64,000 bases of DNA, from the NCBI GenBank assembly GCA_023129485.1, contig JAGMBY010000053.1:1214-65213 (forward strand). Direction: 5' to 3'. Below, in pieces: positions 7,893 to 51,508 of this stretch. The first letter of the stretch is position 1, and every line of letters starts with the position of its first letter. The translations under genes were made by a program, and so were the position numbers. The notes beneath the pieces were generated by a model. That model saw only the letters and a program-made list of their open reading frames with translations. It made no database searches and was not told the DNA's origin. The DNA is from Actinomycetes bacterium (GTDB taxonomy: Bacteria > Actinomycetota > Humimicrobiia > JAHJRV01).

Positions 7893-7976
7893 GGTTAGAT
7901 ATTGAAATATAACATATCAGTTTTGGGTATACTTTCTCGACTGAAAATGTCTTCGAAAGTATACCACAAAACTATT
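7893..7976 (+). repeat. Intergenic imperfect-palindrome repeat, copy A (5-prime extension GGT..CATATCAG plus 17-bp stem AGTTTTGGGTATACTTTC / GAAAGTATACCACAAAACT)
   Basis: Recurs at 8600, 33917, 36071 and 51452. This copy carries a compensatory C>T / G>A pair relative to the other copies. Confidence 0.85.
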
Positions 7977-8106
7977 AAATAAATATAACACTAATAAGAA
8001 TACAACTTGATTTAAAAATAGTTTGATTCTTTCAACATGGTTATTTTAGGAAGTTTTAATTAAAAATTGATTAAAAAAATTTTAATTTAAAAAGGAAAAA
8101 TATAAT

Positions 8107-8607
8107 TTGATAGTAAATATGAAAAAGGATATAAAGATAACCTGGTTTTTGTGGTCAGTGGTTCTATTATTTGACCAGATAACAAAATATATAATAAGAG
8201 AAAAATTAAATTTAGGAGATTCGATTTCAGTAATACACAATATTTTTCACATAACTCATATAAACAACACTGGAGCTGCATTTGGAATGTTTCCAAATGC
8301 TCAAATTTTTTTTATTGTTACCTCAATTATTGCTATAATTGCCCTTATATATTTTTTATATACATTTAAGAAAGGAAATCCTACTTTTTATATATCGATA
8401 GGTTTAATTTTAGGGGGAGCAACTGGTAATCTATTGGATAGATTAATTTTAAGAACAGTAACAGATTTTTTAGATTTTGGAATAAATCCAAAGATTAGAT
8501 GGCCAGCATTTAATATTGCTGATTCATCTGTAGTTATTGGCTTTTTTATTCTCGCAATACTGGTAATAAAAGGAGAATTTTTTAAAGTTAATAGGAACAG
8601 GTCCTGA
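8107..8607 (+). CDS. lspA: Lipoprotein signal peptidase II
   Basis: LspA conserved blocks (NTGAAFGMF, DRL, FNIADS). Four TM segments, 166 aa. Start could be the TTG at 8107 or the ATG at 8119. Confidence 0.9.
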   Translation: MIVNMKKDIKITWFLWSVVLLFDQITKYIIREKLNLGDSISVIHNIFHITHINNTGAAFGMFPNAQIFFIVTSIIAIIALIYFLYTFKKGNPTFYISIGLILGGATGNLLDRLILRTVTDFLDFGINPKIRWPAFNIADSSVVIGFFILAILVIKGEFFKVNRNRS

Positions 8608-8673
8608 AATTATACATATCAGCTTTGGGTATACTTTCTTTGTAAAAATACCTAAAAAAGTATATTGAAAAGC
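8600..8673 (+). repeat. Intergenic palindrome repeat, copy B (degenerate 3-prime half)
   Basis: GGTCCTGAAATTATACATATCAGCTTTGGGTATACTTTCTT matches copies A and C and then diverges. The 5-prime extension overlaps the lspA stop codon. Confidence 0.7.
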
Positions 8674-8734
8674 AATTAATATAGGTAAAATTTAAAAAGA
8701 TATATTATAAGCCAATGTTTTTTAGGAGTATTAT

Positions 8735-9469
8735 ATGTATCCAACCTTATTTAAAATAGGTAACATAACGATTCACTCATATGGACTTATGGTTTCTTTA
8801 GGTTTTTTATTAGCAATTTTAATAGTCTATTTTGAATCTAAAAGAAAGGGATTAGACCCAAGTTCTGCATTAGATCTAGGCTTAGCAGCCATGATAGCTG
8901 GTATTCTTGGTAGTAAATTGTTATTTGTAATCAGGAATTGGAATTACTACTCAGAATATCCTATTAATATATTACTTGATTTTGGACAAGGCTTTATTTT
9001 TTATGGTGGCTTAATTCTTGGAACAGTTGCAGTTATATTAGTTAGTTACTTTAAAAAGATTTCAATTGGAACTGTTGCCGATGTCTGTGCTCCAGCAATT
9101 CCTTTAGGTCATGCTATTGGAAGAATAGGTTGTTTATTAAGAGGTTGCTGTTTTGGAAAAGTGTGTGATTATCCCTGGGCGATTCATCTTGAGGGTGCTC
9201 TAAGACATCCAACACAAATCTATCATTTTTTACATAATTTTTTAATTTTTGTTTTTTTATGGCTTATTAGGAAGAAAATTAAAGTGGAGGGAAATCTACT
9301 TTTAATCTATTTAATCCTTTATAGCATAGCTCGATTTATCACAGAATTTTTTAGAGAAAACCCTATATTTACTTTTGGACTTACGGGTTCCCAGGTATTT
9401 TCTATATTAGTATTTTTAGCTTCATCAATATTTTTAATATACAGATATACAATATATAAAAAAATTTAA
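8735..9469 (+). CDS. lgt: Prolipoprotein diacylglyceryl transferase
   Basis: Lgt signature GRIGCLLRGCCFG. N-terminal HSYGLMV and multi-TM layout. AGGAG RBS. Confidence 0.9.
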   Translation: MYPTLFKIGNITIHSYGLMVSLGFLLAILIVYFESKRKGLDPSSALDLGLAAMIAGILGSKLLFVIRNWNYYSEYPINILLDFGQGFIFYGGLILGTVAVILVSYFKKISIGTVADVCAPAIPLGHAIGRIGCLLRGCCFGKVCDYPWAIHLEGALRHPTQIYHFLHNFLIFVFLWLIRKKIKVEGNLLLIYLILYSIARFITEFFRENPIFTFGLTGSQVFSILVFLASSIFLIYRYTIYKKI

Positions 9470-9664
9470 TTTATTATTAATGATGTAAATTTACTCTGTT
9501 ACAGAGAATTCACACAGGATAATAAATAACTTTTAAGAGTTAAAATTTGTTGTTTCATATTCTAAAAAGTTAGAAAAAAGATTAGTTTAGTATAAAAAGT
9601 GAAAAAAATAAGATATTTTCTTCTAACCAAAAATTAAGTCTTTATTATTTCATAGCATTAGCCC

Positions 9665-10606
9665 ATGGAAAAATATATAAAAAGGGTAAAACTAACTTCC
9701 TCTTATAAAGATGCAGGTAAAAGATTAGACCTATTTATTAGTGAAAAGATACCGAAACTTTCAAGGTCCAGAGTCCAAAAATTAATTCTCCAAGAAAATA
9801 TTATTGTGAATGGTAAAAAGAAATCAAAAAGTTATGTTGTTAAGAGGGGAGATTATATTGAGGTTCTTATACCTCCTGCATCAAAATTAGAAGTTAAACC
9901 AGAGGACATTAAAATCAATATAATATATGAAGATGATGACTTGATAGTTTTATCAAAACCTGCTGGAATGGTTGTTCACCCATCACAAGGTCATCCTTCC
10001 AAAACAATTGTAAATGCATTACTTTTTCATACTAAATTTCTATCTGATATTGGTGGGGTTCTTAGACCTGGTATTGTTCATAGATTGGATAAACTAACGT
10101 CAGGCCTGATGATAGTGGCAAAAAATGACAAGGCTCATAGAAATTTAGCTGAGCAATTTAAGGAGAAGAGTGTTAAAAAGATATATTTAGCTTTGGTAAA
10201 TGGTAGAATAAAGGAGGATGAGGGTGAAATAAATGCTCCTATAGGTAGAAGTAGAAGCAATAGGAAAAAGATGTCAGTAATTACCAGGGGAAAAGAAGCA
10301 ATAACCAAGTTTAAGGTTTTAAAAAGATATAAAAACTTTACTTTAGTTGAGGTAAGACCTATAACAGGAAGGACTCATCAGATTAGAGTTCATTTATCTT
10401 ATATAGGAAATCCAGTAGTCGGTGATACTCAGTACAGAAGAAGGAGAATTTATAAAGACCTGAAATTAGAAAGGCAGTTTTTACATGCAACAAAATTAGA
10501 ATTCAATCATCCAAAGGATGGAAAAAGGATAAGTTTTAAGGATGATTTACCAGAAGATCTTAAAAATGTATTAAAATTTTTGGAAAATAGAAATATTGAT
10601 TTTTAA
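9665..10606 (+). CDS. rluD: 23S rRNA pseudouridine synthase, RluA/RluD family
   Basis: N-terminal S4 domain and catalytic HRLDKLTSGLMIVAKN. Lies downstream of lspA as in Bacillus. Confidence 0.85.
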   Translation: MEKYIKRVKLTSSYKDAGKRLDLFISEKIPKLSRSRVQKLILQENIIVNGKKKSKSYVVKRGDYIEVLIPPASKLEVKPEDIKINIIYEDDDLIVLSKPAGMVVHPSQGHPSKTIVNALLFHTKFLSDIGGVLRPGIVHRLDKLTSGLMIVAKNDKAHRNLAEQFKEKSVKKIYLALVNGRIKEDEGEINAPIGRSRSNRKKMSVITRGKEAITKFKVLKRYKNFTLVEVRPITGRTHQIRVHLSYIGNPVVGDTQYRRRRIYKDLKLERQFLHATKLEFNHPKDGKRISFKDDLPEDLKNVLKFLENRNIDF

Positions 10607-10847
10607 ATCTATTAATTGTAATATTACATCCATCTTGTATAAAATAATATAAGAATTATTTATAATTATCGGTAAGTAGTATGTGTGATTATAGGTGTCA
10701 TCATATATGAAATATTTACATCAAAGAGAAATGTGCTTAATGATTTTAAAAATAAGTAAAACAAGCAAATTGAAAGTAATAAGAAATAAATAATATAATT
10801 AATGTAAAAGTAAATTTAATAAAATATAAATTGGGAGTGATTTATAA

Positions 10848-11153
10848 TTGAGTAATATCCGACGGTTAGTATTAGATGTTTTAAAGCCTCAATTACCATC
10901 CATTATAAATTTTGCTAAGCAATTAGCAGACCTTGAAGGGGTTGATGGTGTGGATGTGAGTTTAATTGAGATGGATTCAAAATCAGAGAGTGTAAAAATT
11001 ACTTGCGAAGGTAGAAATATAAATTATAGTGAGATTGAGGAAGTAATTATTAATAATGGCGGTACAGTTCATAGTGTTGATAAGGTTGCAACTGGAAGTA
11101 CAATTGTTGAGGAGGTATCAACTCAGCAAGATACTGAATCAACTCTTGCTTAA
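10848..11153 (+). CDS. DUF211 family small protein (archaeal-type COG1888-like)
   Basis: IRRLVLDVLKP...GVDGVDVSLIEMD...ITCEG..I.Y..IEEVI...GGTVHSVD resembles the DUF211 pattern. TTG start with GGGAGTGA RBS. The family assignment is from memory and was not searched. Confidence 0.5.
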   Translation: MSNIRRLVLDVLKPQLPSIINFAKQLADLEGVDGVDVSLIEMDSKSESVKITCEGRNINYSEIEEVIINNGGTVHSVDKVATGSTIVEEVSTQQDTESTLA

Positions 11154-11178
11154 TCTACTATAATTTTCATAAGATATT

Positions 11179-11775
11179 ATGAAATCTTTTCATGAATTTA
11201 TAGAAAGAATAAAAGAATACAGAGAGATTTCAGAAGTGGATGAGTATGCTCGCCGATTATTCTCTATGAATGGTTTTGATGGGTGTATTACAATTTTGGG
11301 TGTGCTAATTGGTTTTTATATACAAAATATTGATGAACCAATGTTAATTTTTAAAACAGGAATTGCAGTAGCAATTGCAATGGCAATATCAGGTTTGTGG
11401 GGAGCTTATTCAGCGGAGAGATCAGAAAGAATAAAGGATTTAAAAGAGTTAGAGAGAGTAACAATTTCAGATCTTAATAATACCAAAATAGGGAGTGCAC
11501 TTAGATTTGCAACAATAGTTGTAGCAATAGTGAATGCAGTTGCTCCCTTTATTACAGCTTTTTTAACATTGATACCCTTTTTATTTGCAAAAAGTTTAGA
11601 TATTAAAACCTGTTACTATATTTCATTTATTATATTGTTTTCGACTCTATTTTTATTAGGTATATTTTTAGGGAGGGTTTCAAAAGAGAATCTTTTAATA
11701 GCAGCAATTAAGATGATTATAGCTGGAATAATGTGTGTATTAATAATTACATTTGCAGAAAGATTTATAGGATAA
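11179..11775 (+). CDS. VIT1/CCC1-family membrane protein (putative Fe/Mn transporter, short form)
   Basis: GFDGCITILGVLIG and AMAISGLWGAYSAERSERIKDLKELE match the conserved VIT1 transmembrane core (G.DG....LV.G and SMA.GEY.S). Confidence 0.6.
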   Translation: MKSFHEFIERIKEYREISEVDEYARRLFSMNGFDGCITILGVLIGFYIQNIDEPMLIFKTGIAVAIAMAISGLWGAYSAERSERIKDLKELERVTISDLNNTKIGSALRFATIVVAIVNAVAPFITAFLTLIPFLFAKSLDIKTCYYISFIILFSTLFLLGIFLGRVSKENLLIAAIKMIIAGIMCVLIITFAERFIG

Positions 11776-11788
11776 TTTTTATTTTGTT

Positions 11789-12967
11789 ATGGATTTTAAA
11801 AAATCTAAAATATTAAAAAAGAGAGAAGATAAGGTAAATCCCACTTTAGCTTTTTTTGTAATACTATTAACATCCACAATAGTTTTTTTATTCTTTTATC
11901 TCATAATTTTAGGACCATTTGTTTCAAAATTATTTACGGGAGGACGTGAACCAGGTAAAGCTGTTTTTGAAATTGCATTTTCTTCTCCACAGGAGGATGA
12001 AAAAATTGTCATTCTTGAAGGAAAAGCCACACTGGATATAGAGGTCGTTGTCGAAAGTAATCGAAAAATTGATGAAGTAAATGTATATATAAATGGTGAG
12101 TTAATAAAAACTTTTAACAAAGAACCTTTTAAATTTAAGTGGGAAACATCTGATTCAGGAAAATATTCATTATATGCCGAAGTAATAAATGATTTGGGGG
12201 AAAAGAAGGAGTCATTACCAATTGAAGTAACAGTTTATTCTCCAGAGGAGGAAGAAATTAAAGAAACCCTGGTTAATAAGATAAACAGAGTAATAAGTGA
12301 AATAGAATATAGAAAAACCAACGGATATCCTAAAATATGTTTAAAAACCGAAGATCCTATTATAATAGATGGAACTACTGAAAATTGGGAAGATTTTGAT
12401 TCATTTTCAGCATTTAAAGCAACTTTCAAGCCTGAAGCTCTTACAAGCTCTACTGATCTTTCTGGAAGGTTCTATTCTGCCTGGAATAATGAAAATCTAT
12501 ATTTGATCATGGATGTCACAGATGATGTTTTAACTACTTTAGGTAAAGATGAAGACATTCAAAAAGGAGATGGTTTATTATTTTCCATAGACACAAATTT
12601 ATATGGAGATATAAATACAAGAATACTTGATGCAGATGACTATCAACTATTTATTTCACCAGGTAATTTCTCAAATATAAATTCACAAGTAAAGACAATT
12701 GTTCCTGAGCAGTATGAATTAACTGGAATAAATATAGCTTCAACAAGGAAAGTTGGAGGGTATTATATTGAATTAAAAATACCATGGATTCAACTTGGGA
12801 TACAAAATCCACAGGATGAGATGGTATTTGGTTTTAATCTTGATATTTTAGATACAGATCACTTAGGTGAACATGAGCTAATAATATCTTCATCTCCACG
12901 AGCTAATTCACAAGATGCTCTAACATTTGGGACTTTAATTTTAATTGAGCATCCAACCGAGGATTAA
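11789..12967 (+). CDS. Membrane-anchored protein with Ig-like domain and CBM9-like (DOMON-like sugar-binding) domain
   Basis: N-terminal TM helix. C-terminal region matches the CBM9-like pattern (AWNNENLYLIMDVTDD, DGLLFSIDTN, YYIELKIPWIQLG, FGFNLDILDTD). Confidence 0.55.
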   Translation: MDFKKSKILKKREDKVNPTLAFFVILLTSTIVFLFFYLIILGPFVSKLFTGGREPGKAVFEIAFSSPQEDEKIVILEGKATLDIEVVVESNRKIDEVNVYINGELIKTFNKEPFKFKWETSDSGKYSLYAEVINDLGEKKESLPIEVTVYSPEEEEIKETLVNKINRVISEIEYRKTNGYPKICLKTEDPIIIDGTTENWEDFDSFSAFKATFKPEALTSSTDLSGRFYSAWNNENLYLIMDVTDDVLTTLGKDEDIQKGDGLLFSIDTNLYGDINTRILDADDYQLFISPGNFSNINSQVKTIVPEQYELTGINIASTRKVGGYYIELKIPWIQLGIQNPQDEMVFGFNLDILDTDHLGEHELIISSSPRANSQDALTFGTLILIEHPTED

Positions 12968-13169
12968 AATTAGGATTTTTAATAAGAAAATCTAAAAAAA
13001 TTTTAAATAGAATTAAATAATATCTGATAAAATAGTAAATATTGTTGTATTAAAAAGTTATTTTGGTATAATACTTAAATATAATAGAAATTGTTTTAAT
13101 AAAAAATTCTGATATCATTCTTAAAATCATTAAAATCTGAAATTTTTAAAGAGAAAGGAGCAAATTACA

Positions 13170-14335: not shown

Positions 14336-14371
14336 TTAGATATAAAATGTCATGATCAATTAATTCATAAA

Positions 14372-19158: not shown

Positions 19159-19215
19159 ATTTTTAATATTATTTATTTAAAAATCTGGTAAAATTAATAA
19201 AATTTAAATTTAGAA

Positions 19216-19355
19216 ATCTTCAGGGCAGGGTGTAATTCCCGACCGGCGGTAAAAGCCCGCGAGCTCTTATGGCAGATCTGGTTTTTTCCAGAGCCGACAG
19301 TATAGTCTGGATGGGAGAAGATTTGATATAAGCGTCAGGTTTTCTTCCTGACGCT
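19216..19355 (+). ncRNA. FMN riboswitch (RFN element) with downstream expression-platform hairpin
   Basis: CTTCAGGGCAGGGTGTAATTCCCGACCGGCGGTAAAAGCCCGCGAGC...CCAGAGCCGACAGTATAGTCTGGATGGGAGAAGA matches the RFN consensus, including the P1 pair TCTTC/GAAGA. Hairpin AGCGTCAGG-TTTTCTT-CCTGACGCT at 19331-19355. Followed by the rib operon. Confidence 0.95.
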
Positions 19356-19491
19356 AATTAATTGTATGAGGATATTTTATATATATAATATCTTAATTAA
19401 TAAAAAATATATTTTTAAATTATATTTTAAAAATTATGAAAAAGTATTAAGAAGTATTAATAACAAATTAAAAATAATAAGAATCAAATAT

Positions 19492-29676: not shown

Positions 29677-32376
29677 TTGGAAAATTATAGAATAACAATT
29701 CCTTTAGAGGATAAAGAAATAATTTTGGAAACCGGAGAATTAGCAAAACAAGCAGATGGAGCTATTTTAGTTAGGTGTGGAAAGACAGTTCTATTAGTTA
29801 CTGTAGTTGAGTCTAAGACTGAAAGGGGCAATAAAGATTTCTTCCCACTACTCGTCGATATTGAAGAGAAAATGTATGCTGCTGGAGAAATTCCTGGTGG
29901 TTTTATAAAAAGAGAGGGAAGACCTAGTGAAGAATCAATATTGACTGCCAGATTAATTGATAGACCCATTAGACCTCTATTTCCTGATGATTATCGAAGT
30001 GATGTTCAAATAATAGCTACTATTCTTTCAGTGGATAAAATAAATCCATTTGATAATTTAGGTATATTAGGTGCATCAGCAGCATTAACTATTTCCAATA
30101 TACCCTTTTTAGGTCCAATTGGTGCAGTAAGAGTTGGTTATATAAATGATAAATACTTGATAAATCCAACTTATCAACAGTTGCAAGAAAGCTCATTGAA
30201 TTTAGTTATGGCTGGAACGAAGGAAAGTATAGCTATGATGGAAGCAAAAGCAAATGAGGTATCTGAGGAAGTTTTAATAGGAGCTATTGAAGCTGCAAAA
30301 CAGATTATTAATCTACAGATTGATAAGCAAATGGAATTTAGTAAGCAAGTTAACTTGATGAAAGATAAGGTAATTGATATTGCTAAAGAATCTTTAGTAG
30401 AAGCAGTAAAAATTGAAGATGAAAAAATCAGGCGGAGCGAAATCTCTAAAATAAATAAAGAATCAATATCAAAAACTATTGAATTAGCTGCTGAAGAGCT
30501 TAAAGAAGATTGGAAAAATAAGACTCCATATATGGAGTTGTCTCTAAGAAAATTAGAAAAAGAACTGACAGAAGAATTTCTGTATTCAAAGTTGGTCGAA
30601 ATGATAAAGGAACAAATACAAAATACTTTTCTAATCGATGATGTTGAAGTAAGAAAGGAAACTATAACTGAATTAAAGGATGAAACTATTGAAGAAATTA
30701 ATAATAATTGGCCTGAATATCAAACATTAACAGCAAAACTTATAAGAAAGATAGAAAATGAAGCTGCAGAGGAATTTTTCGCAGAAAAACTCTTGAATAT
30801 AGTTCGTGAACCAATGCTAAAAATATTCTTAATTAATGATATTGAAGAAAAAGAAGTAATGATGGATCAATTAAAAGAGAAAGCAGTTACTCAGTTGGGA
30901 AAAGGTTGGGGAAGATACAAGGGAATAATAAATAATATCTATTCAAATTTAGAGAAGGAATTGGTTAGAAAAAGGATTTTAGAAGATGGAATACGACCAG
31001 ATAATAGAAAAGCTACAGATATTAGAGAAATTTCGTGTAAAGCTGGATATCTTCCCAGAGACATAGTTCATGGCTCTGGACTATTTACAAGGGGACAAAC
31101 CCAGGTTTTAACAATACTCACTTTAGGAGAATTAAAAGAAAAGCAAATGATTAAGGGTTTAAGTGTAGAGGAAAGTAAAAGATATATGCATCACTATAAC
31201 TTCCCACCATTCAGCACTGGAGAAACTGGATTTTTAAGAGGTCCTCGTAGAAGGGAGATCGGTCATGGCGCATTAGCAGAAAAAGCACTATTACCATTAA
31301 TTCCCGATGAGGATGAATTTCCATATACATTAAGATTGGTATCTGAGGTTTTACAATCAAACGGTTCAACATCAATGGCCAGTGTTTGTTCAAGTACATT
31401 AGCATTAATGGATGCTGGTGTTCAAATAGAAAAAGCTGTAGCTGGAATAGCATTAGGTCTTGTTAAAAAAGATGATAAAGTGGTGATTCTCTCAGACATT
31501 TTGGGAAAAGAAGATCATTTTGGAGACATGGATTTTAAAGTGGCTGGAACAAAGGATGGAATTACTGCTGTACAGATGGATATAAAAATAACCGGAATTA
31601 CCACTCAAATAATTATTGATGCTCTCAAACAGGCTAAAGAAGGAAGGTTATTTATTCTATCTAAAATTTTAGATGAAATTAGTGAACCAAGAAGCGAACT
31701 CTCTCCTAATGCACCAAGAGTTATTAGAATGGAAGTTCCAATTGATAAAATAGGTGATATTATTGGAACAGGTGGAAAAGTAATAAATAGTATTATTGAT
31801 GAAACAGGGGTTAATATTGATATTGAAGATGATGGTAAGGTATATATTTATTCAACTGATGCAGAGAGTTCTAAGAGAGCTAAAGAAATGATTGAGGATA
31901 TCATAAAAGAGTATGAATCTACAATATATATTGAAACAAGTAAGATAGGTGAGGTAATTGGAACAGGTGGGAGTACTATAAAAAACATTCAGGAAAAAAC
32001 CAATTCGAGAATTGATATTGAAGATGATGGTAAATTACATATTCAATCATCAAGTGAGGAGAATCTATTGAAAGCTAAAAAGATGATACAGGATATCGTC
32101 CAGGAGGTTAAACATGTTTCAACAAATGATGTTAAAAATGGGCAGGAGTATATAGGAACTGTAATAAATACAACCTCATTTGGTGCATTTGTTGAAATAC
32201 TTCCTGGTGTTGAAGGATTACTACACATTTCAAAATTATCATATGGAAGAGTTGATAGGGTTGAAGATGTAGTTAAAGTGGGTGATAAAATCAAGGTTAT
32301 AGTTATTGGAAAAGATTTTACAGGTAAGATAGACCTGGATTCTCCTGAACTTAGGAAGAAAACAAGAGAACATTAA
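29677..32376 (+). CDS. pnp: Polynucleotide phosphorylase with expanded helical domain and two tandem KH domains
   Basis: RNase PH domains 1 and 2; KH motifs IGTGGKVINSI and IGTGGSTIKNI in tandem; S1 domain at the C-terminus. 899 aa versus about 700 typical. Confidence 0.9.
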   Translation: MENYRITIPLEDKEIILETGELAKQADGAILVRCGKTVLLVTVVESKTERGNKDFFPLLVDIEEKMYAAGEIPGGFIKREGRPSEESILTARLIDRPIRPLFPDDYRSDVQIIATILSVDKINPFDNLGILGASAALTISNIPFLGPIGAVRVGYINDKYLINPTYQQLQESSLNLVMAGTKESIAMMEAKANEVSEEVLIGAIEAAKQIINLQIDKQMEFSKQVNLMKDKVIDIAKESLVEAVKIEDEKIRRSEISKINKESISKTIELAAEELKEDWKNKTPYMELSLRKLEKELTEEFLYSKLVEMIKEQIQNTFLIDDVEVRKETITELKDETIEEINNNWPEYQTLTAKLIRKIENEAAEEFFAEKLLNIVREPMLKIFLINDIEEKEVMMDQLKEKAVTQLGKGWGRYKGIINNIYSNLEKELVRKRILEDGIRPDNRKATDIREISCKAGYLPRDIVHGSGLFTRGQTQVLTILTLGELKEKQMIKGLSVEESKRYMHHYNFPPFSTGETGFLRGPRRREIGHGALAEKALLPLIPDEDEFPYTLRLVSEVLQSNGSTSMASVCSSTLALMDAGVQIEKAVAGIALGLVKKDDKVVILSDILGKEDHFGDMDFKVAGTKDGITAVQMDIKITGITTQIIIDALKQAKEGRLFILSKILDEISEPRSELSPNAPRVIRMEVPIDKIGDIIGTGGKVINSIIDETGVNIDIEDDGKVYIYSTDAESSKRAKEMIEDIIKEYESTIYIETSKIGEVIGTGGSTIKNIQEKTNSRIDIEDDGKLHIQSSSEENLLKAKKMIQDIVQEVKHVSTNDVKNGQEYIGTVINTTSFGAFVEILPGVEGLLHISKLSYGRVDRVEDVVKVGDKIKVIVIGKDFTGKIDLDSPELRKKTREH

Positions 32377-33765: not shown

Positions 33766-33916
33766 AAAACAAATAATTTTTTAATAATTCTTTAAATAGA
33801 AGGAAAAAGCTTACCTTATTTACTTTAATAATATTCTATAAATAGAATTAACATTTAGAATTAATAAAGTAATAATATGAATAATACGAAATTATTAGAA
33901 ACTTAAATAGTAATAG

Positions 33917-34002
33917 GGGTCAGGCCTTGACATGAGACATATCAGCTTTGGGTATACTTTCTCGACTGAAAATGTCTTCGAAAGTATACCACAAAGCTAT
34001 TA
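33917..34002 (+). repeat. Intergenic palindrome repeat, copy C (full: GGTCAGG..CATATCAG extension plus 17-bp stem with bulged A)
   Basis: Near-identical to copy A apart from a compensating pair of substitutions. Confidence 0.85.
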
Positions 34003-34039
34003 ATATATATCATATAAATCATAAAAAGGAGATGAAATT

Positions 34040-36070: not shown

Positions 36071-36163
36071 GAGCTTTGGGCATACTTTCTCCCTTCCCCT
36101 TCGTTACACTCGAGGGTCAAGGGCAGGCTCTGAAAATGTCTTTGAAAGTATACCGCAAAGCTA
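36071..36163 (+). repeat. Intergenic palindrome repeat, copy D, carrying a roughly 40-nt GC-rich hairpin insertion in the loop
   Basis: AGCTTTGGGCATACTTTC ... GAAAGTATACCGCAAAGCT, with the insertion TCCCTTCCCCTTCGTTACACTCGAGGGTCAAGGGCAGGC replacing the usual TCGAC loop segment. Confidence 0.85.
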
Positions 36164-36232
36164 AAAAATTGAAATTGATAATTAAACAAATAAAAATATT
36201 AAATTGAAATTTGAGGAGAGAATAAAAAGGCT

Positions 36233-40423: not shown

Positions 40424-40443
40424 AACTCATTTTAAAATATTTA

Positions 40444-41784: not shown

Positions 41785-43215
41785 ATGAAACACAATAAAA
41801 ATGTATATTTAATTACACTTGGGTGTCCCAAGAATGAATATGATTCAGACTGTATAAGTTATATTTTGGAAGAGAATGGTTTTTTTATTACAAAAAATGT
41901 TAGAGAAGCAGATATTGTAATAATAAATACATGTTGTTTTATTGATCCTGCAAAGGAAGAATCAATTGAAGCAATTTTAGAAATGACTCAGTTAAAAGAG
42001 AAGATGAATTTTATATTAATTGTTTTTGGTTGTATGTCACAACGGTATTATATGGAATTATCTAAAGAGATACCTGAGGTTGATGGTTGGGTAGGTTTAT
42101 CAAATATGTCATCTCTTCCTAAAGTTATTTATGAGATCTTTGATAATAAACAATTATTAATTAAAGGAAGTAATGAGTTTCGGAAAGGTTTGTTAAAAAA
42201 ACGAATTTCTAAAAAATATATTTCAAGATTTAAACCAATTTGCTTGGTTGAGAACATAAATGGATGGGTAAAAAGACAACCTGAAAGAGGATTTTTTGGA
42301 GAATTACCATATGCATACTTAAAAATAGCTGATGGTTGTGATCATAGTTGTACATTTTGTGATATACCTAATATAAAGGGTAAACATGAATCAAGATTAC
42401 CAGAGAAAATTATTGATGAAGCAAAAGAACTTGTTGATAATAATGTCAAAGAGATAATTTTAATATCGCAGGATATTACACAATATGGAAAAGATTTAGA
42501 AGAAAGATTTGATTTAATAAGATTGCTAAATGATTTAATTGAAATTGACAATTTAAGTAGAATCAGATTAATGTACTTAAATCCAGGTGGTATTAATGAT
42601 GATTTGATTAGTTTAATCTCTCAAAGTGGAAAAATATGTAAATATTTAGATATCCCAATTCAACATGTAAGTACTAAAATATTAAGAAAGATGGGTCGCG
42701 GAGGAAGCTATAATGAATTTTTAGAACTTTTTTTAAAAATTAGAGAAAAGATATCAGATATAGTATTTAGAAGCTCAATTGTTATTGGTTTTCCTTCTGA
42801 GACAGAAAGTGACTATGATTTAATTTGTAAATTTTTAAAAGAAGCTAAACTTGATTGGGTGGGTTTTTTCAAATTCTCACCACAAAAAGGTACGAAAGCT
42901 TATTACTATAAGAATAGAATAAATAAAAAAACAGTTGATAGAAGGTATAATGATATAGTGCTTCTTCAGAATGAAATTTCAATGGAACTTCGTGAAGAAT
43001 TAGCGGGAAAAACATTGGATGTATTGATAGAACAAACTTCTATTGAAATAGAAGATTTTTGGGAAGGGAGGTCATATAGAGAAGCCCCAGAAATTGATGG
43101 TTTAATATTCGTTGAAAAAGATAATATAGCAAAAGGAGACTTAATTCCAATCAAAATAACCCATAGTCAATTTTTTGATCTTTATGGAAGAGTTATAGTT
43201 AATGAAAAATTATGA
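41785..43215 (+). CDS. rimO: Radical SAM methylthiotransferase, RimO-like (ribosomal protein S12 methylthiotransferase)
   Basis: MTTase N domain with LGCPKNEYDS, radical SAM CDHSCTFC and C-terminal TRAM domain. 476 aa. Confidence 0.75.
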   Translation: MKHNKNVYLITLGCPKNEYDSDCISYILEENGFFITKNVREADIVIINTCCFIDPAKEESIEAILEMTQLKEKMNFILIVFGCMSQRYYMELSKEIPEVDGWVGLSNMSSLPKVIYEIFDNKQLLIKGSNEFRKGLLKKRISKKYISRFKPICLVENINGWVKRQPERGFFGELPYAYLKIADGCDHSCTFCDIPNIKGKHESRLPEKIIDEAKELVDNNVKEIILISQDITQYGKDLEERFDLIRLLNDLIEIDNLSRIRLMYLNPGGINDDLISLISQSGKICKYLDIPIQHVSTKILRKMGRGGSYNEFLELFLKIREKISDIVFRSSIVIGFPSETESDYDLICKFLKEAKLDWVGFFKFSPQKGTKAYYYKNRINKKTVDRRYNDIVLLQNEISMELREELAGKTLDVLIEQTSIEIEDFWEGRSYREAPEIDGLIFVEKDNIAKGDLIPIKITHSQFFDLYGRVIVNEKL

Positions 43216-43384
43216 TAATTGCAGCATTAATTACAATAGCATAGGGATTAGATTATTCTTAGAGATTTTGAGCAATTTTAGTGAAATTATTATTTTGTTT
43301 ATGATTATTAATATATAATAAATCAAAGTTGCTAAAAGGCTCTTTAAGATTTTTTAATTAAACCTTACTATCAAGAGGATAAGA

Positions 43385-43984
43385 TTGAATTTTTCTAATA
43401 GACTAACTATTTTTAGAATATTAACAATTCCAGTTTTTTTATATTTCCTATTAGCTGATACAAATAGTTCAATTAGACAATCACAGTTTATATGGGCTGC
43501 AACAATTGTCTTTCTTATTTCTGCTATTACAGATGCAGTGGATGGATATATTGCTAGAATTAGAAATGAAGTTACAGCATGGGGAAAATTAATGGATCCA
43601 ATTGCTGATAAGATTCTAATTTGTTCTGCTTTGATAGCATTGGTTGAATTGGGAAGAATACCTTCATGGATTACAATTATTATTATTTTTAGAGAGTTTT
43701 TAATATCTGGACTAAGAGCTGTTGCTGCAACAAGAGGTGTAATAATTTCAGCCAGTATTTTAGGTAAGGCAAAAGCAGTTATTCAAATAATAGCTGTAAT
43801 AATAGCAATGATAAACACTTCGATATCAGGAATTAACTTTTTACCAATATCATTTCTCGGAATACAGTTAGAAATGTATTTTTTGATAATTGCAGTATTG
43901 ATTACAGTAGCATCAGGATTAGATTATGTTTGGAGATTTGGAGCAATTTTAGCAAAATTAACTGTTAAGGAAATAAAAAAATAA
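43385..43984 (+). CDS. pgsA: CDP-diacylglycerol--glycerol-3-phosphate 3-phosphatidyltransferase
   Basis: CDP-alcohol phosphatidyltransferase motif DAVDGYIAR...GKLMDPIADK. TTG start after AGAGGA. Confidence 0.85.
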   Translation: MNFSNRLTIFRILTIPVFLYFLLADTNSSIRQSQFIWAATIVFLISAITDAVDGYIARIRNEVTAWGKLMDPIADKILICSALIALVELGRIPSWITIIIIFREFLISGLRAVAATRGVIISASILGKAKAVIQIIAVIIAMINTSISGINFLPISFLGIQLEMYFLIIAVLITVASGLDYVWRFGAILAKLTVKEIKK

Positions 43985-45091: not shown

Positions 45092-45120
45092 AATGAATTA
45101 AAATTTAACTCTTCTGGTAA

Positions 45121-45134: not shown

Positions 45135-45298
45135 TTAATTAGGAGAAAAAGATAATTGATAATCATTTGTAATATCTAAAGCTAGATAACAATCTATAGA
45201 AATTAAATTTAAAGACTTTTATTATTATAAACAGCAATCTATTAATTTTCTATTTAAAATTGATAAATAACAATTTATAATAATTATAAATATATTAA

Positions 45299-45328
45299 TT
45301 TGACTCAAGCAATTGCTCATGATATAAT
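45299..45328 (+). promoter_or_regulatory. Sigma-A-like promoter for recA (TTGACT - 17 nt - TATAAT, extended TG)
   Basis: TTGACTCAAGCAATTGCTCATGATATAATT read directly; about 40 nt upstream of the recA RBS. Confidence 0.55.
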
Positions 45329-45366
45329 TTACGCAAATGTGCAATTATTTAAATTATGGAGGATAA

Positions 45367-46380: not shown

Positions 46381-46449
46381 TAAAAAATATAGAATTGAAA
46401 AATATTGTAATTATTAAAATTTAGTTTTTTTAATTTCACTATTTTATAA

Positions 46450-47097
46450 ATGAATCTTTTTGAAGACATACCCACTTATCAAATCACCAAAATAGAGAAA
46501 TCAAAGGGAAGACGAAAATACAGGATTCTCTATTTAAATGGTAAAAAATTTGGTAAATTCTTCGATGAAATCATATTTAGATTTAATATTAAAGAAGACT
46601 CGTTTTTAAATGAAAATGAATTAAAACAACTTCAAAAAGTTCAAAGTGAAATGAAAGCAGAAAAGATTGCATTAAATTATCTAAGCTATAAAACCCGGTC
46701 AATAAATGAAGTAAAAAAGAAACTGTTTAGTAAGGAAATAGCTTATTCAGTAATTGATTTGACTATTGAAAAGATGAAGAAATACGGTTATCTTGATGAT
46801 GAAAAATATGCTCGTGATTGGATAGAAGAGAGAATTAGAACAAGAGGTTTTTCTCCATCAAAAATTAAATCTGAACTATTTCTTAAGGGCATTTCTAAAG
46901 AAATAATTGAAAATAATTTATCAGAGATTTATACACCTGAACTAGAAATTAAGACTGCAAAAAGGATAGCAAAAAAGCAGATGAGAAAATATAAAAACTT
47001 AGATGAAAAAGTAATAAAAAGAAGAATTATTAATTTCCTTCTTAGAAAAGGTTATAATTACTCATTTATAGAATCAATTCTATCAGAGGTTTTATAA
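46450..47097 (+). CDS. recX: RecA regulator RecX
   Basis: Three-helical-repeat RecX-like sequence, 215 aa, immediately after recA. Confidence 0.7.
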   Translation: MNLFEDIPTYQITKIEKSKGRRKYRILYLNGKKFGKFFDEIIFRFNIKEDSFLNENELKQLQKVQSEMKAEKIALNYLSYKTRSINEVKKKLFSKEIAYSVIDLTIEKMKKYGYLDDEKYARDWIEERIRTRGFSPSKIKSELFLKGISKEIIENNLSEIYTPELEIKTAKRIAKKQMRKYKNLDEKVIKRRIINFLLRKGYNYSFIESILSEVL

Positions 47098-47289
47098 AAT
47101 TATATTGCTTATTACCCCACATAAGTATATATATAAAATCATTAAATATAAAAAAAAGGAAATAAAGAGTAATTTAAATAGAAATTTAACGTTTTATTTT
47201 AGTAATAATCTTTAACATTTTGTTATTGTAACAACAATAAAATTTATTTAATTGACTTATAAAAAATAGTCTGATAGCATAAAGAAAAT

Positions 47290-47470
47290 CCTTGAAAACT
47301 GAATATCTGCTCCGAGTTAAACATCTAAGGATTTATCTATGATATTTAACCGGTAAGATAGTGAAAAATATCTTTAAGGGTCAGTTTTGGAAACAAATTG
47401 GCCTCCCGTGTTTGGAAAGGAGCAAGAAAATAAAACACCAACCTCTTTTCAACACGAGAGAAGGTGTTTT
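47290..47470 (+). promoter_or_regulatory. Structured leader with intrinsic terminator; candidate Moco/Tuco riboswitch
   Basis: Nested stems (AAATCCTT/AAGGATTT, GATATTT/AAATATC, CTCC/GGAG). Conserved-looking blocks CTCCGAG, GCCTCCC, GAAAGGAG. Terminator AACACC..GGTGTT followed by TTTTTTATTTT. Located upstream of tupABC-moaA-moaC. Confidence 0.5.
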
Positions 47471-48345
47471 TTATTTTAAATAGGAAATGTTATAAGGAGG
47501 GAATAATAAAGAAGTCTAAAAAAATATTAACTATCTTCACGATAATTATATTTTTAATTATTAATATAACTGGATGTATTCAAAAAAAATCTGTTGAGGA
47601 AAAAAGGGTCATATTAGCCACTACAACCAGTACCTATGATTCCGGTCTTTTAGACGAATTGATTCCGGTATTTGAAAAAAAATATAAAATTATAGTAACA
47701 CCAATTGCAGTTGGAACTGGAGAAGCATTGAAGATGGGAGAGAGGGGAGAAGCAGATGTTATTTTAGTTCATGCAAGATCTGAAGAAGATAAATTTGTAG
47801 AAGAGGGATATGGAGTAAACAGGAATGATGTGATGCATAATGATTTTGTGATAGTTGGTCCAGGGGAGGATCCTGCAAAGATAAAATATTTAGAAAATGT
47901 TTCAAATGTTTTTAAAACTATAAGTGAAAATGAGATTTTATTTACATCAAGAGGAGATGACTCTGGAACTCATAAGAAAGAAAAGAAGATATGGGAGGAA
48001 GCCGGAGTGCAGCCCAAGGGAGATTGGTATTTAGAAGTTGGTCAAGGAATGGCAAATACAATCATGGTAGCTAATGAAAAAAATGCTTATACACTAACTG
48101 ATAGGGGAACATATCTTTCTCAACAGGATAATATACAACTGGTAATATTATTTGAAGGAGATCCTCTTCTTTTGAATCCATATAGCATAATTGCAGTAAA
48201 TCCTGATAAGCATTCAAAGGTCAATTATGAAGGAGCAATGAGATTTATTGAATTCATAACTTCAAAGGAGGGTCAGAAGATAATAAAGAATTTTGGTATT
48301 GAAAAATATGGACAACCATTATTTTTCCCAGATGTAATCAAATAA
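47464..48345 (+). CDS. tupA: Tungstate/molybdate ABC transporter substrate-binding lipoprotein (TupA-like)
   Basis: TupA pattern TTTSTYDSGLLDEL...VGTGEAL..GERGEADVILVHA...VMHNDFVIVGP.EDPA. Lipobox ITGC. The GTG at 47464 lies inside the terminator stem; true start is likely near 47503-47509 after AAGGAGG. Confidence 0.8.
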   Translation: MFFILNRKCYKEGIIKKSKKILTIFTIIIFLIINITGCIQKKSVEEKRVILATTTSTYDSGLLDELIPVFEKKYKIIVTPIAVGTGEALKMGERGEADVILVHARSEEDKFVEEGYGVNRNDVMHNDFVIVGPGEDPAKIKYLENVSNVFKTISENEILFTSRGDDSGTHKKEKKIWEEAGVQPKGDWYLEVGQGMANTIMVANEKNAYTLTDRGTYLSQQDNIQLVILFEGDPLLLNPYSIIAVNPDKHSKVNYEGAMRFIEFITSKEGQKIIKNFGIEKYGQPLFFPDVIK

Positions 48346-48461
48346 TTAAATTTCTAAGATTAATTTTTTTAAATTTTTTGCAATTTTAAAATTAAATTCT
48401 AATTAAATTATAAAAATTTAAGATCAAATTCAATATTTTATAAGAATTATTATATTTAATA

Positions 48462-49169
48462 ATGGATTTATTTGTTGAAGGCATAAAACAAGCACTTTAT
48501 TTGCTTATTGAATTAAATAGAGAAATTTTTTCAATTGCTTGGCGTACTCTCTCAATAACAGGTCCTTCAGTGCTAATATCTTTACTTATAGGCATACCTT
48601 TGGGAGTAGTATTGGGACTTATGAAATTCCCTGGAAGAAAATTATTATTATCTCTCGTATATACTGGTATGGGATTTCCTCCCACAGTAATTGGATTATT
48701 TGTTGCAATGTTTCTTTGGAGAAGTGGACCTTTGGGTTTTCTATCCCTCTTATACACACCGACTGCAATGATCATAGCCCAAGTCATAATTGCCACTCCC
48801 ATAGTAATTGGTTTAATTCTTGCTGCAATGCAACAACTTGACCCTAAATTAAAACTTCAAGCTCTATCATTAGGTGCTAATAAACTGCAACTTTTTTGGA
48901 TATTGATTAAAGAAGCTAAAATTCCTTCATTAGCCGCAATTATGGCTGCGTTTGGTGGAATAATTTCTGAAGTGGGTTCAGCTATGATCGTAGGTGGGAA
49001 CATTAAAGGAAGAACTAGAATTCTAACCACTGCTATTGTTTTATTCACAAGAATGGGTAAATTTGAGAAAGCAATTGCAATATCAATAATACTTTTATTT
49101 TTATCTTTTCTTGCTAACTTTGCACTTACTTATATTCAACAAAGAGAGGGGATTTATTGGAAACGTTAA
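48462..49169 (+). CDS. tupB: ABC transporter permease (TupB-like)
   Basis: Six-TM ABC permease with EAA-like loop. Position between tupA and tupC. Confidence 0.8.
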   Translation: MDLFVEGIKQALYLLIELNREIFSIAWRTLSITGPSVLISLLIGIPLGVVLGLMKFPGRKLLLSLVYTGMGFPPTVIGLFVAMFLWRSGPLGFLSLLYTPTAMIIAQVIIATPIVIGLILAAMQQLDPKLKLQALSLGANKLQLFWILIKEAKIPSLAAIMAAFGGIISEVGSAMIVGGNIKGRTRILTTAIVLFTRMGKFEKAIAISIILLFLSFLANFALTYIQQREGIYWKR

Positions 49170-49266
49170 TATCTAATAGATATAAAAATAATATTGGAAT
49201 CAACAAAATTTAACATAGGGAGATTTTATTAGTAATGTTGATATTTAACAAAGTGGAGAAATAATA

Positions 49267-50355
49267 TTGGAAACATTATTAGAGGTAAAAAATCTGATAC
49301 ATAGATATAATCAAAAAGTAGTTTTAGATATTGAGGGATTTGAGTTGAGTAAAGGTGAAGTATTAGCATTAATTGGACCAAATGGAGCTGGTAAAAGTAC
49401 ATTTCTTAGAATCCTGAATCTTTTAGAAAAACCCACTCAAGGAATTGTTAATATTTTTGGAATTACACCAATCAATAATAGACAAAGACATAATCTTAGA
49501 AAGAAAATGGTTATGATATTTCAAGAACCCTTACTTTTTAAATCTACTGTTTATAATAATGTTTCATATGGTCTTAGAATGAGAAAAAAGAATAAAGATT
49601 TTATAAAGAATAAGGTTTTAGAAGCATTAGAAAAGTTTGGAATCTCTCATCTTATAAATAGACAGGCTGGAACACTTTCTGGAGGAGAGGCACAACGTGT
49701 TTCACTTGCAAGAGCATTGGTTTTAGAACCTGAAATTTTGTTATTGGATGAACCTTTCGCTGCATTAGATCAACCAACAAGGGAAGAGTTGAGAGACGAT
49801 TTATATAAAATAATCAGAAGAGAAAATCAAACAACATTACATGTGACCCATGATAGAAATGAGGCTTTGGTCATTTCTGACAATGTTGCTGTAATGAATG
49901 AAGGAGAGATTCTTCAGAGGGGAAGAACAGAGGATGTTTTTAATAAACCGATTGATGAATTTGTAGCAAATTTCTTAGGGGTGGAAACTATTCTATATGG
50001 AAAAATTACAAGTAAGAGCGATGGACTTTGTATAGTAAATATTAATAATCATAAGTTGGAAGTAGTATCTGATTTGGAGGTGGGTAAAAGAGTTATTACT
50101 TGTATTCGTCCTGAAAATGTAACACTTTTGAAATATTCATTAAAAGCGCCTCTTACAAGTGCAAGAAATTCATTTATCTCGACTATTAAAGATATTTCTT
50201 CCTACGGACTTGTTTATAGAGTTATTATGGATTGTGGTTTTAATTTGACATCATTCATAACAAAGGAATCCTTAGATAGATTAAATTTAAAGATTGGTGA
50301 AAAAATTATTGCAAATATAAAAGCAACTTCTATTCATCTATTATCACGAAAGTAA
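49267..50355 (+). CDS. tupC: ABC transporter ATP-binding protein with C-terminal TOBE/Mop domain (TupC/ModC-like)
   Basis: Walker A GPNGAGKST, signature LSGGE, Walker B LLLDEP and C-terminal transport-associated OB domain. TTG start after GGAGAAA. Confidence 0.85.
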   Translation: METLLEVKNLIHRYNQKVVLDIEGFELSKGEVLALIGPNGAGKSTFLRILNLLEKPTQGIVNIFGITPINNRQRHNLRKKMVMIFQEPLLFKSTVYNNVSYGLRMRKKNKDFIKNKVLEALEKFGISHLINRQAGTLSGGEAQRVSLARALVLEPEILLLDEPFAALDQPTREELRDDLYKIIRRENQTTLHVTHDRNEALVISDNVAVMNEGEILQRGRTEDVFNKPIDEFVANFLGVETILYGKITSKSDGLCIVNINNHKLEVVSDLEVGKRVITCIRPENVTLLKYSLKAPLTSARNSFISTIKDISSYGLVYRVIMDCGFNLTSFITKESLDRLNLKIGEKIIANIKATSIHLLSRK

Positions 50356-50375
50356 AATATTTAAATAAAGTCAAA

Positions 50376-51329
50376 ATGTTAGACAGGTTTGGTAGAAATA
50401 TTGAATATCTAAGAATCTCAGTAACTGACAGGTGCAATTTAAGATGTATTTATTGTATGCCTGAAGAGGGAATATCTCCAATTAGTCATGAACAAGTTCT
50501 CAGGTATGAAGAAATTGTAAAATTGGTAAAAATTGCTACAGAATTGGGAATAAATAAAATAAGAATCACTGGTGGTGAACCATTGGTGAGAAAAGAGTTA
50601 GTGAGTTTTATTGCACTATTAAGGGAAATTGATGAAATTGAGGACATATCTCTAACAACAAATGGAATATTTTTGGAAAGATATTTAGATAATCTAATAA
50701 GTGCAGGTTTAAATAGAATTAATATTAGTTTAGATTCATTAAATCCAAAAATTTACAAAAAAATAACTCGCAGAGATAATTTAGATGATGTAATTAGGGG
50801 ATTGAAAAAAGCAATTAAATCTTCAATTAGACCAATAAAGATAAATGTTGTATTAATGAAAAATTTAAATGATAATTTAAAGGATTTTGCTAAATTATCC
50901 ATCAAAGAACCTGTCCATGTAAGATTTATTGAATATATGCCCGTAATGGGTATAGAAAAAATAAGAGGGTTAACTGAAGAAGAAATGCTTGATGAGTTAA
51001 ATAAATATGGAGAATTAGAAAAAACCAAAAGTCCTTTTGGTCATGGGCCTGCAATATACTATAAATATAAAAATGCCAAAGGAACTATTGGTTTAATATG
51101 TTCTAATTCACATAATTTTTGTTATAAATGTAATAGATTAAGATTAACTTCTGATGGCAGACTTAAACCATGTCTTTTTGGTAAGGAAGAAGTAGATGTT
51201 AGAAGCTTATTAAGAACTAATGCTTCAAACAATGCTTTAAAAGAAGCTTTTAAAAATGCAATTTATCTTAAGCCAAGGGGTAGAAGTAAAAATAAAAGAA
51301 TTCATCATATGTATCAAATAGGAGGATAA
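50376..51329 (+). CDS. moaA: GTP 3-prime,8-cyclase MoaA
   Basis: Radical SAM CNLRCIYC at the N-terminus; C-terminal auxiliary-cluster cysteines (CSNSHNFCYKCNRLR). Confidence 0.9.
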   Translation: MLDRFGRNIEYLRISVTDRCNLRCIYCMPEEGISPISHEQVLRYEEIVKLVKIATELGINKIRITGGEPLVRKELVSFIALLREIDEIEDISLTTNGIFLERYLDNLISAGLNRINISLDSLNPKIYKKITRRDNLDDVIRGLKKAIKSSIRPIKINVVLMKNLNDNLKDFAKLSIKEPVHVRFIEYMPVMGIEKIRGLTEEEMLDELNKYGELEKTKSPFGHGPAIYYKYKNAKGTIGLICSNSHNFCYKCNRLRLTSDGRLKPCLFGKEEVDVRSLLRTNASNNALKEAFKNAIYLKPRGRSKNKRIHHMYQIGG

Positions 51330-51451
51330 TTAACCTAAGAGCAAGATTAAAAATATAATTAAAAAGGTATAAATTAAAAATATAAAGCAATACTCTAAAC
51401 TTTAAATCTCAATCCTCAATTTAGAGTAAAAAGAAATTTAAACTATTGAAG

Positions 51452-51508
51452 AGCTTTGGGTATACTTTCTTGACTGAAAATGTTTTCGAAAGTATACCGC
51501 AAAGCTAT
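51452..51508 (+). repeat. Intergenic palindrome repeat, copy E (core only)
   Basis: AGCTTTGGGTATACTTTCTTGACTGAAAATGTTTTCGAAAGTATACCGCAAAGCT. A bulged G replaces the bulged A, and TTGAC/GTT replaces TCGAC/GTC. Confidence 0.85.

Follow-up and report, generated by a model that had tools for sequence, protein, structure and literature searches.

The window analysed here, a 64-kb (64,000-nt) stretch of contig JAGMBY010000053.1 (assembly GCA_023129485.1) from an uncultured Actinomycetes bacterium, contains five copies of an intergenic hairpin repeat, designated H. We consider it probable that H is a non-autonomous, lineage-restricted palindromic repeat that is recognised by a protein and spreads into transcribed spacers in sense orientation, of the kind represented by repetitive extragenic palindromic sequences and bacterial interspersed mosaic elements (REP/BIME), by BOX, or by MITEs, miniature transposable elements with inverted repeats. 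H is an undescribed family within the well-known class of small interspersed repeats. A total of 87 copies was found in 0.44 Mb, comprising the window, related contigs and three further relatives; these copies occupy at least 57 flanking contexts, and all 87 are intergenic.

Hairpin repeat H in the window

A sequence-only reading of the window had proposed five co-oriented copies of the repeat, A to E, and all five were found where it had placed them, on the + strand (Table 1). Their number is far above chance: the 5' arm GCTTTGGGTATACTTTC occurs 5 times with ≤3 mismatches (0.15 expected) and the 3' arm 4 times (0.09 expected). A covariance model, R1, was built from the five copies and run with filters off. 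The model clearly separates the strands, with 85–87 bits on the + strand versus 39–41 bits on the − strand, and yielded no sixth copy on either strand of the whole window.

H has a length of 55 nt, AGCTTTGGGTATACTTTC-TY-GRC-TGAAAAT-GYC-TKC-GAAAGTATACC-R-CAAAGCT, and its fold comprises an 18-bp stem (7 + 11), in which one base bulges from the 3' arm, and leads via a 2x3 internal loop into a 3-bp apical stem capped by the 7-nt loop CTGAAAATG. The single bulge on the 3' arm had been recognised before, but the stem had been taken to be 17 bp long. The predicted RNA fold has an energy of −26.3 kcal/mol (z = −8). The repeat ends in AGCTTTG...CAAAGCT, with AGCT at the start of the stem and variable bases preceding it. 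Its base composition of 35–45% GC compares with 28.6% GC in the window, and the intergenic DNA of the genome is far more AT-rich.

The individual copies differ in their state of preservation. The compensatory pair noted earlier in copy A is real (C3/G53 to T/A); this copy is unchanged in the strain contig that was searched (L163; loci and contigs are denoted by L numbers), and the gene spacing is the same in L164–L170. Copy B is not truncated; R1 aligns it over its full length. The change to a G-U pair in copy E also exists, but it is a recent C-to-T substitution: the orthologue in L152, which is 98.9% identical to that part of the window, still has GTC, with A as the bulged base. The extra hairpin of copy D results in a three-way junction fold. 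For this form a hammerhead or other ribozyme was considered and rejected, as no Rfam match was obtained at E = 10 and CUGA/GAAA are not located at the junction. A group II intron domain V, suggested by the AGC start and the 3' bulge, was likewise rejected because of the wrong length, the missing tetraloop and the lack of an Rfam match.

Table 1. Positions of H copies and associated segments within the window
Feature	Position	Strand	R1 score (bits)	Remarks
Module X, 5' of copy A	7892-7918	+		Diverged; starts right after ileS stop codon (7890-7892)
H copy A	7919-7973	+	85.2	E 1e-21; intact; T-A compensatory pair at stem position 3/53
Module X, 5' of copy B	8594-8620	+		Decayed; includes lspA stop codon (8605-8607)
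H copy B	8621-8674	+	38.3	Full length; decayed 3' arm, several broken pairs
Module X, 5' of copy C	33916-33943	+		0 mismatches to degenerate consensus
H copy C	33944-33998	+	87	Intact, near family consensus
Copy C 3' flank to dapB start codon	33999-34039	+		Carries ribosome-binding site AAAGGAG
H copy D	36072-36162	+	47	Inserted-hairpin subfamily; extra GC-rich hairpin (36091-36123) in apical region
H copy E	51452-51506	+	84.6	Without module X; recent C-to-T in apical stem

Size, distribution and orientation of the H family

A metagenome scan with both arms returned 42 loci, 41 of which were relevant, and R1 identified 81 distinct copies in the relevant loci and the strain contigs. Thus, the covariance-model census, run on the window and related metagenome contigs and brought to 87 copies by three further relatives, shows that H is not confined to the five copies first noticed. 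Extrapolation from 5 copies per 64 kb in the window would give a density of about 80 copies per Mb. An additional scan of 596 Gb of genome contigs with the 17-mer GYTTTGGGYATACTTTC returned at least 114 single chance matches in unrelated taxa (L001–L114); this pattern was too short and the scan was discarded. No match to H was obtained in Rfam at gathering or permissive thresholds, in phage and plasmid collections, in viral contigs or in the literature. The best sub-threshold Rfam match was SSRC41 (27.8 bits versus a threshold of 60), and the others were generic hairpin (miRNA) models. These results agree with the previous statements that the sequence was not recognised as a described element and that a metabolite riboswitch does not fit.

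The orientation census comprised 66 copies with called open reading frames (ORFs) on both sides. Spacers between co-directional genes hold 63 of these, 60 in sense and 3 in antisense orientation, and the remaining 3 occur in divergent spacers, each pointing to its downstream gene. The 22 convergent spacers contained no copy (P ~0.014 for the number of spacers, 0.03 for their length). The co-orientation with transcription seen in the window is therefore a property of the whole family rather than a random arrangement, a same-strand gene lying downstream of every copy except the 3 antisense ones. The upstream stop codon is no more than 15 nt from the start of H in 10 of the 60 sense copies and no more than 30 nt in 17; the distance from H to the start codon ranges from ~20 to ~700 nt. 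Operon-internal sites include ileS-lspA-lgt, lysC-dapA and ribosomal-protein operons, the latter with up to 7 copies in 12.7 kb (L162) or 4 copies in 4 kb (L150). At two loci (L125 8480–8900 and L121 8400–8900), a T-box leader with its terminator precedes an aminoacyl-tRNA synthetase gene, and H is inserted, together with a module termed X, between that terminator and the start codon; in L121, a further inserted repeat truncates this H copy beyond the loop.

An intrinsic transcription terminator or attenuator would also consist of a strong stem-loop, and H is often located 1–30 nt past a stop codon. However, the data contradict such a role, which we regard as extremely improbable. In place of a U-tract, the stem is followed by ATTAAT, AAAGAAAT or AATAAT, and a terminator scan does not report H. 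Furthermore, the hairpin stands between the T-box terminator and the gene controlled by it as well as between ribosomal-protein cistrons, and it is absent where genes end convergently.

Neighbouring H copies are arranged head-to-tail; only 3 are inverted relative to their neighbours, and no close inverted pair was seen. L126, L130 and L137 contain one copy each that is opposed both to its genes and to the neighbouring copies, so that mixed orientations occur within a few kb, and the copy in L143 is oriented with the local minus-strand genes against the contig majority. In the window, ~94% of the coding capacity lies on the + strand, with a strong positive GC skew. Since nearly all genes are located on one strand, the directions of replication and transcription are confounded, as would suit a site bound by protein at the DNA level, or a hairpin in single-stranded DNA, that serves the chromosome, for example through BIME-like nucleoid or gyrase binding or as a replication-oriented polar signal. 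Each arm also contains the near-palindrome GGTATAC(Y), with centres ~32 bp apart, and the mismatch pattern described below fits DNA as well as neutral decay. However, the few informative contigs, with mixed orientations in L126, L130 and L137 and the behaviour of the L143 copy, speak against a chromosomal signal, and known polar motifs do not resemble a hairpin of 55 nt that shows high turnover and carries inserted hairpins; we judge this explanation very improbable. The orientation bias of H would be due either to strand-specific insertion, for example by an HUH-type single-strand transposase acting on the lagging-strand template, or to selection against antisense copies.

Base pairing and sequence conservation

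In an alignment of 58 distinct copies, 95% of the cells are paired, and 10 of the 21 pairs have changed on both sides (35 cells); none of 500 shuffles reached the observed values. The alignment was fitted to R1 itself, which somewhat favours the structure. The compensatory variation first seen in copy A thus extends to further pairs across the family, and because of these double changes the alignment indicates that pairing is selected at some point in the life cycle of H. The change in copy E had also been taken as evidence for a structure formed in RNA rather than DNA, as a G-U pair is compatible only with the former. This argument did not hold for the family: 62 distinct copies contain 34 G.T/T.G and 42 A.C/C.A mismatches, with no excess of the wobble type. 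Such symmetry is the expectation of strand-symmetric mutational decay or of a DNA hairpin.

The stem core, the loop CTGAAAATG and the position of the bulge are nearly invariant across relatives whose orthologous proteins are 72–93% identical. Since the sequence itself, beyond the pairing, is near-invariant, its conservation points to recognition by a specific protein.

Associated modules and travelling flanks

Copies A, B and C share a 5' extension. This observation was correct, but the extension is not part of one structured element with the hairpin, as had been assumed: it represents the separable module X, for which the consensus in relatives is GGGGTCAGGTCTTGCAATATAACATATC, also written GGGGTCAGGTCTTGCAATATAACA, and which occurs 5' of H, 3' of H or alone. 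Two promoter readings were tested and rejected. For a sigma-70 promoter in module X (TTGCAA/TTGACA ... TATACT), the 20-nt spacing is too long; if GGGGTCAGGTCTTGCA is read as a sigma-54 promoter (GG-N10-GC), the GC varies from copy to copy (TTGAC and TTGAA variants).

In related contigs, H is interleaved with two other modules, Y (GTCATTCTGAAGG...GAAGAATCT, also GTCATTGCGAGG...GAAGCAATCT) and Z, neither of which is present in the 64-kb window. Repeat Y was seen in the forms GTCATTCTGAAGGAGCGATAGCGACTGAAGAATCT and GTCATTGCGAGGGACAAAGTCCCGAAGCAATCT at 17 loci, often flanking H on both sides (L142 6747–7131, L122 3380–3700, L158, L148, L127 and L178 among them; none in the window). Motifs like GTCATTGCGAGG...GCAATCT occur in many uncultured bacteria, and no paper describing them was found in the literature. 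Literature searches on the GTCATTCTGAG / GTCATTGCGAG module and on the H arm sequence returned nothing relevant. Repeat Z is made up of a pair of short GC-rich hairpins (GGCAAGGCTTTAGCCTTGC ... GCAACCCTAAAGAGTTGCC) and was observed at 7 loci (L121 8717–8768, L123, L137, L150, L151, L126 and L173); L173 is the relative whose dapB and dapA sites are without H. One instance of the interleaving in related contigs is a tandem array with 3.4 units and a period of 146 nt. This array is not a CRISPR array, as its 'spacers' are near-identical (92% matches) and not unique.

Some copies are accompanied by flanking DNA. The 3' flank of copy C (~40–44 nt) has 92.5% identity over 40 nt to L162 1727–1766, the S8-L6 spacer of a ribosomal protein operon; as it is common to this unrelated locus, the flank belongs to the repeated unit. 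A "type 4" unit carries a ribosome-binding site and, at an unrelated locus, also a pseudo-copy of the rplB start. In L150 2640–2790 (same in L177), the L23-L2 spacer contains, upstream of H, a second 29-nt copy of the ribosome-binding site and initial codons of rplB, and the same pseudo-rplB start is also found beside H at the unrelated locus L133 1379–1500 (orthologues L144, L147 and L154). Thus, based on the occurrence of the rplB-start duplicate at two loci, host flank has been copied together with H. A small ORF running through the hairpin in L150 was dismissed since it is not conserved in L133. In the window itself, an 80–85 nt pseudo-copy of the pgsA 3' end (43210–43289 and 43881–43960, 85% identical) is located directly after the miaB stop codon, upstream of pgsA, and resembles the rplB-start duplicate next to H in L150.

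H and its flanks might accordingly be a mobile expression cassette that supplies a promoter (TTGACT-17 nt-TATACC across the loop, or a TATACT box in the 5' arm), a ribosome-binding site, or both. A same-strand gene is always located downstream of the sense copies; the units at copy C, L162 1665, L133, L150 and L151 reach through the Shine-Dalgarno sequence to the start codon; and in most copies TTGACT is present in the loop, 17 nt before TATACC. We nevertheless hold this explanation to be improbable. The −10 candidate TATACC is without the conserved final T, and at the −35 position many copies have TCGACT or TTGGCT. A promoter scan was silent at copy C, gave for copy D only a weak match from the 3' arm into the flank (TTGAAA-16 nt-AAAAAT, 36142–36169), and yielded no more matches in the scanned region than in its shuffles. 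In addition, the distance to the start codon is highly variable, most copies lie inside operons that need no promoter, and a transcript begun inside H would be without the hairpin, leaving the pairing constraint unexplained.

Turnover, decay and subfamilies

Presence/absence polymorphism of H was observed at orthologous sites. In the same-species strains L115, L116 and L120, which encode a DapB identical to that of the window, a degenerate remnant of 50 nt stands in place of copy C. The orthologue of copy C in L174 (DapA 94% identical) has 8 differences in its 55 nt; 7 of these are GC-to-AT changes, and several break pairs. The site of copy D is empty in L173 (DapA 88% identical) and rearranged with other repeat modules in L174. 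The copy number in one ribosomal operon is 7 in L162 and 2 in both L177 and L178, partly in different spacers, and H is missing from it in the 62%-identical outgroup L179, where the spacers measure 20–30 nt. Moreover, diagnostic subfamilies recur at unlinked loci, namely GAC/GTC versus GGC/GCC, a T14-A41 plus A.C type, and the inserted-hairpin type. The latter was found outside the window at L160 11371, L151 309 and L162 10628, 2316 and 7408, with varying insert sequences. As judged from the sequence comparisons, turnover, decay and subfamilies mark H as a proliferating, decaying repeat rather than a set of anciently conserved regulatory sites. The turnover, the mosaics, the tandem arrays and the inserted-hairpin subfamilies, none of which the sequence-only reading had noted, argue for a mobile or selfish origin.

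Four independent metagenome assemblies (L116–L119) stop 19–76 nt upstream of dapB, at copy C (window ~33960–34020), as expected at a multi-copy repeat. In GCA_023129165.1 (L116), the genes after dapA are unlike those of the window, indicating a rearrangement or a misjoin downstream of dapA. A length difference near cinA in L118 turned out to be a scaffold gap of Ns and not an insertion.

The same comparisons bear on the possibility that H is a cis-acting RNA maintained by the host, that is, an intercistronic or 5'-untranslated hairpin read by a dedicated RNase or RNA-binding regulator, with mobility only as its historical origin. Such a role would account for the 60 of 63 sense copies in co-directional spacers, with a same-strand gene downstream and none at convergent ends, for the loop, bulge and stem sequence that are invariant across species, and for the compensatory changes in 10 of 21 pairs. 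It would also suit the high density in the ribosomal-protein operons of L162 and L150 and a spacer with H that is 97% conserved next to coding DNA with 86%. However, orthologous copies have been lost, replaced or degraded among close relatives, degenerate copies such as B stay in place, and H is absent from the nearest outgroup examined. In addition, the downstream genes are unrelated, and G.U is not in excess over A.C on the sense strand. We consider host maintenance unlikely.

Comparison with known repeat systems

The earlier proposal of a REP/BIME-like or MITE-like repeat family was borne out, as the family is genuine and this label fits best; the structured regulatory RNA hinted at in the same reading was not. 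Like REP/BIME elements, H is a short imperfect palindrome with a strand-defining irregularity, extragenic and present in high copy number; it forms mosaics or clusters with other motifs and lies in transcribed spacers, a location in which a stem-loop can influence the stability of the mRNA. As with the REPIN/RAYT systems of enterobacteria and pseudomonads, in which REP doublets are associated with tyrosine transposases (PMC3116915, PMC3337134), H is lineage-restricted and probably inherited vertically. Unlike REPINs, H occurs as single head-to-tail copies and not as inverted doublets, has no GTAG-like 5' tetranucleotide at the foot of the hairpin, and is not accompanied by a RAYT gene in the DNA available (~0.44 Mb). 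It further differs from REP in its ~95% sense orientation, its longer stem (18 bp), its variable terminal structure, its AT-richness and its unrelated sequence.

With the pneumococcal repeats BOX, RUP and SPRITE, H shares the organisation as modular intergenic stem-loops that are co-transcribed with their neighbours and have variable internal modules, as well as few recent insertions and a narrow clade (PMC3049150). The pneumococcal repeats agree with the coding direction in only ~61–63% of cases and are enriched between convergent genes (PMC3049150), whereas H is ~95% sense and never located between convergent genes. There is no sequence similarity to them, and no candidate insertion sequence (IS) with matching inverted repeats was found in the DNA available.

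MITEs such as the Neisseria Correia elements and Bacillus cereus bcr1 resemble H in having inverted arms, 18 nt in H, around a short core and in presence/absence polymorphism, nesting and decay. As the terminal inverted repeats of H are identical with its whole stem, the resemblance to a MITE is one of form only. Like H, elements of the Correia/bcr1 type have the potential to provide adjacent genes with expression signals or RNase III-type substrates. In contrast to a typical MITE, no short target-site duplication was recognised for H and no parent IS turned up in the available DNA, its 55 nt are at the lower size limit, and its strong orientation bias is unexpected for symmetric inverted repeats.

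Finally, H recalls the attC sites of integrons, which are likewise imperfect palindromes that can fold as single strands; both have a base outside the helix, a central spacer that stays unpaired and a terminal structure that varies, and both are co-oriented with the adjacent genes. However, the R''/R' core sites (RYYYAAC ... GTTRRRY) are lacking, no integrase is located nearby, and the flanks consist of syntenic housekeeping genes (ileS-lspA-lgt, lysC-dapA and ribosomal operons) instead of cassettes.

Proposed mobilisation and fate of H copies

If H is such a protein-recognised, spreading repeat, a trans-acting protein would copy or recognise it and thereby keep the exact sequence, bulge and loop. 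As the sequence comparisons show, new copies land in transcribed spacers, between cistrons, between a T-box leader and its gene, or within ribosomal-protein operons, and almost only in sense orientation. They join modules X, Y and Z, form tandem arrays and gain nested GC-rich hairpins, and subsequently decay by GC-to-AT mutation or are lost. Each resident copy is presumably co-transcribed and would fold in the mRNA (~−26 kcal/mol). REP elements of E. coli protect mRNA against exonucleases, may act in processing, and obstruct terminating ribosomes near stop codons. By analogy, the H hairpin would most likely hold up 3'-exonucleases or provide a site of processing, possibly of the RNase III type, and copies within ~15 nt of a stop codon could obstruct terminating ribosomes. 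A minority of copies may have been co-opted; some are apparently useful, since one spacer is more conserved than the flanking genes and the gene downstream has its ribosome-binding site within the repeated unit in some cases.

As a putative mobiliser, an HUH single-strand transposase fits best because of the bulged asymmetric hairpin, the lack of a terminal duplication and the bias to one strand. Against the HUH/REPIN route count the lack of such a gene in the limited DNA and the absence of the REPIN doublet arrangement. A search for H arm pairs that enclose a gene, as a parent IS would have, gave only noise in the available DNA.

Several observations weigh against H as a spreading, non-autonomous repeat. 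A crude motif search among 665 ORFs (~0.44 Mb) identified no Y1 (HUH) transposase or RAYT, and no multi-copy ORF was seen in the available DNA. No consistent short target-site duplication was found, the long repeats in the flanks being other modules or the 29-nt rplB duplicate; host flank (the ribosome-binding site and the pseudo-rplB start) travelling with some copies is not predicted by precise transposition. The H consensus is unchanged among relatives with 72–93% identical orthologues. Between L133 and L144, H is identical at 55 of 55 positions and the whole spacer at 133 of 137, compared to 86% in the flanking coding DNA, a difference which indicates that this spacer is under constraint and not neutral. 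The avoidance of convergent spacers and the operon-internal sites are unlike most selfish repeats, and avoidance and sense bias together suggest selection or a strand-specific mechanism in place of pure selfishness.

In a further reading, H would be the hairpin by which a dedicated protein recognises the element, copying it as well as using it. H would then be a domesticated sense-strand punctuation of operons that processes or tunes polycistronic mRNAs, especially those of ribosomal-protein operons, and that has spread, carrying ribosome-binding sites, as mobile intercistronic expression cassettes, possibly with an intermediate that is single-stranded or RNA. Three findings fit such a system, namely the extreme bias to sense orientation, the avoidance of convergent spacers and the one spacer conserved beyond its flanking genes; we regard it as a speculative and improbable alternative to the spreading repeat.

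Host lineage and further features of the window

Proteins encoded in the window recur in metagenome contigs and metagenome-assembled genomes (MAGs) of South China Sea cold-seep sediment (PMC9357000; metagenomes PRJNA707313). Outside this tight clade, the nearest DapA and SecY are only ~60% identical, those with names belonging to Ca. Hakubella and Actinomycetota MAGs. We treated the host as an uncultured, deep-branching, low-GC lineage of marine sediment. The NCBI labels on identical proteins are in conflict ("Actinomycetia bacterium" versus "candidate division WOR-3 bacterium" MAGs), and at least one of the conflicting bins either carries a wrong label or is a chimera.

Small interspersed repeats have been described mostly in Proteobacteria and in a few Firmicutes, and the H family extends them to an uncultured, very AT-rich, deep-branching lineage. 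In practice, H repeats break metagenome assemblies, add spurious C-termini and small ORFs, and mimic regulatory RNAs; the covariance model would mark contigs of the clade and help their annotation. The operon-internal sense distribution is unusual compared to repeats at convergent gene ends and makes H a test case for whether such elements are tolerated parasites or recruited mRNA-processing signals.

Three further features of the window were noted. The gene for polynucleotide phosphorylase (PNPase; 29677–32376) encodes 899 amino acids and contains a tandem internal duplication (31746–31911 / 31941–32106, 195-nt period) corresponding to two KH domains; bacterial PNPases usually have one KH and one S1 domain. 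Two riboswitches unrelated to H were identified with Rfam: an FMN riboswitch at 19212–19326 (117 bits), upstream of the ORF at 19366, and a Moco/tungsten-cofactor riboswitch at 47298–47438 (78 bits), upstream of the ORF at 47464.

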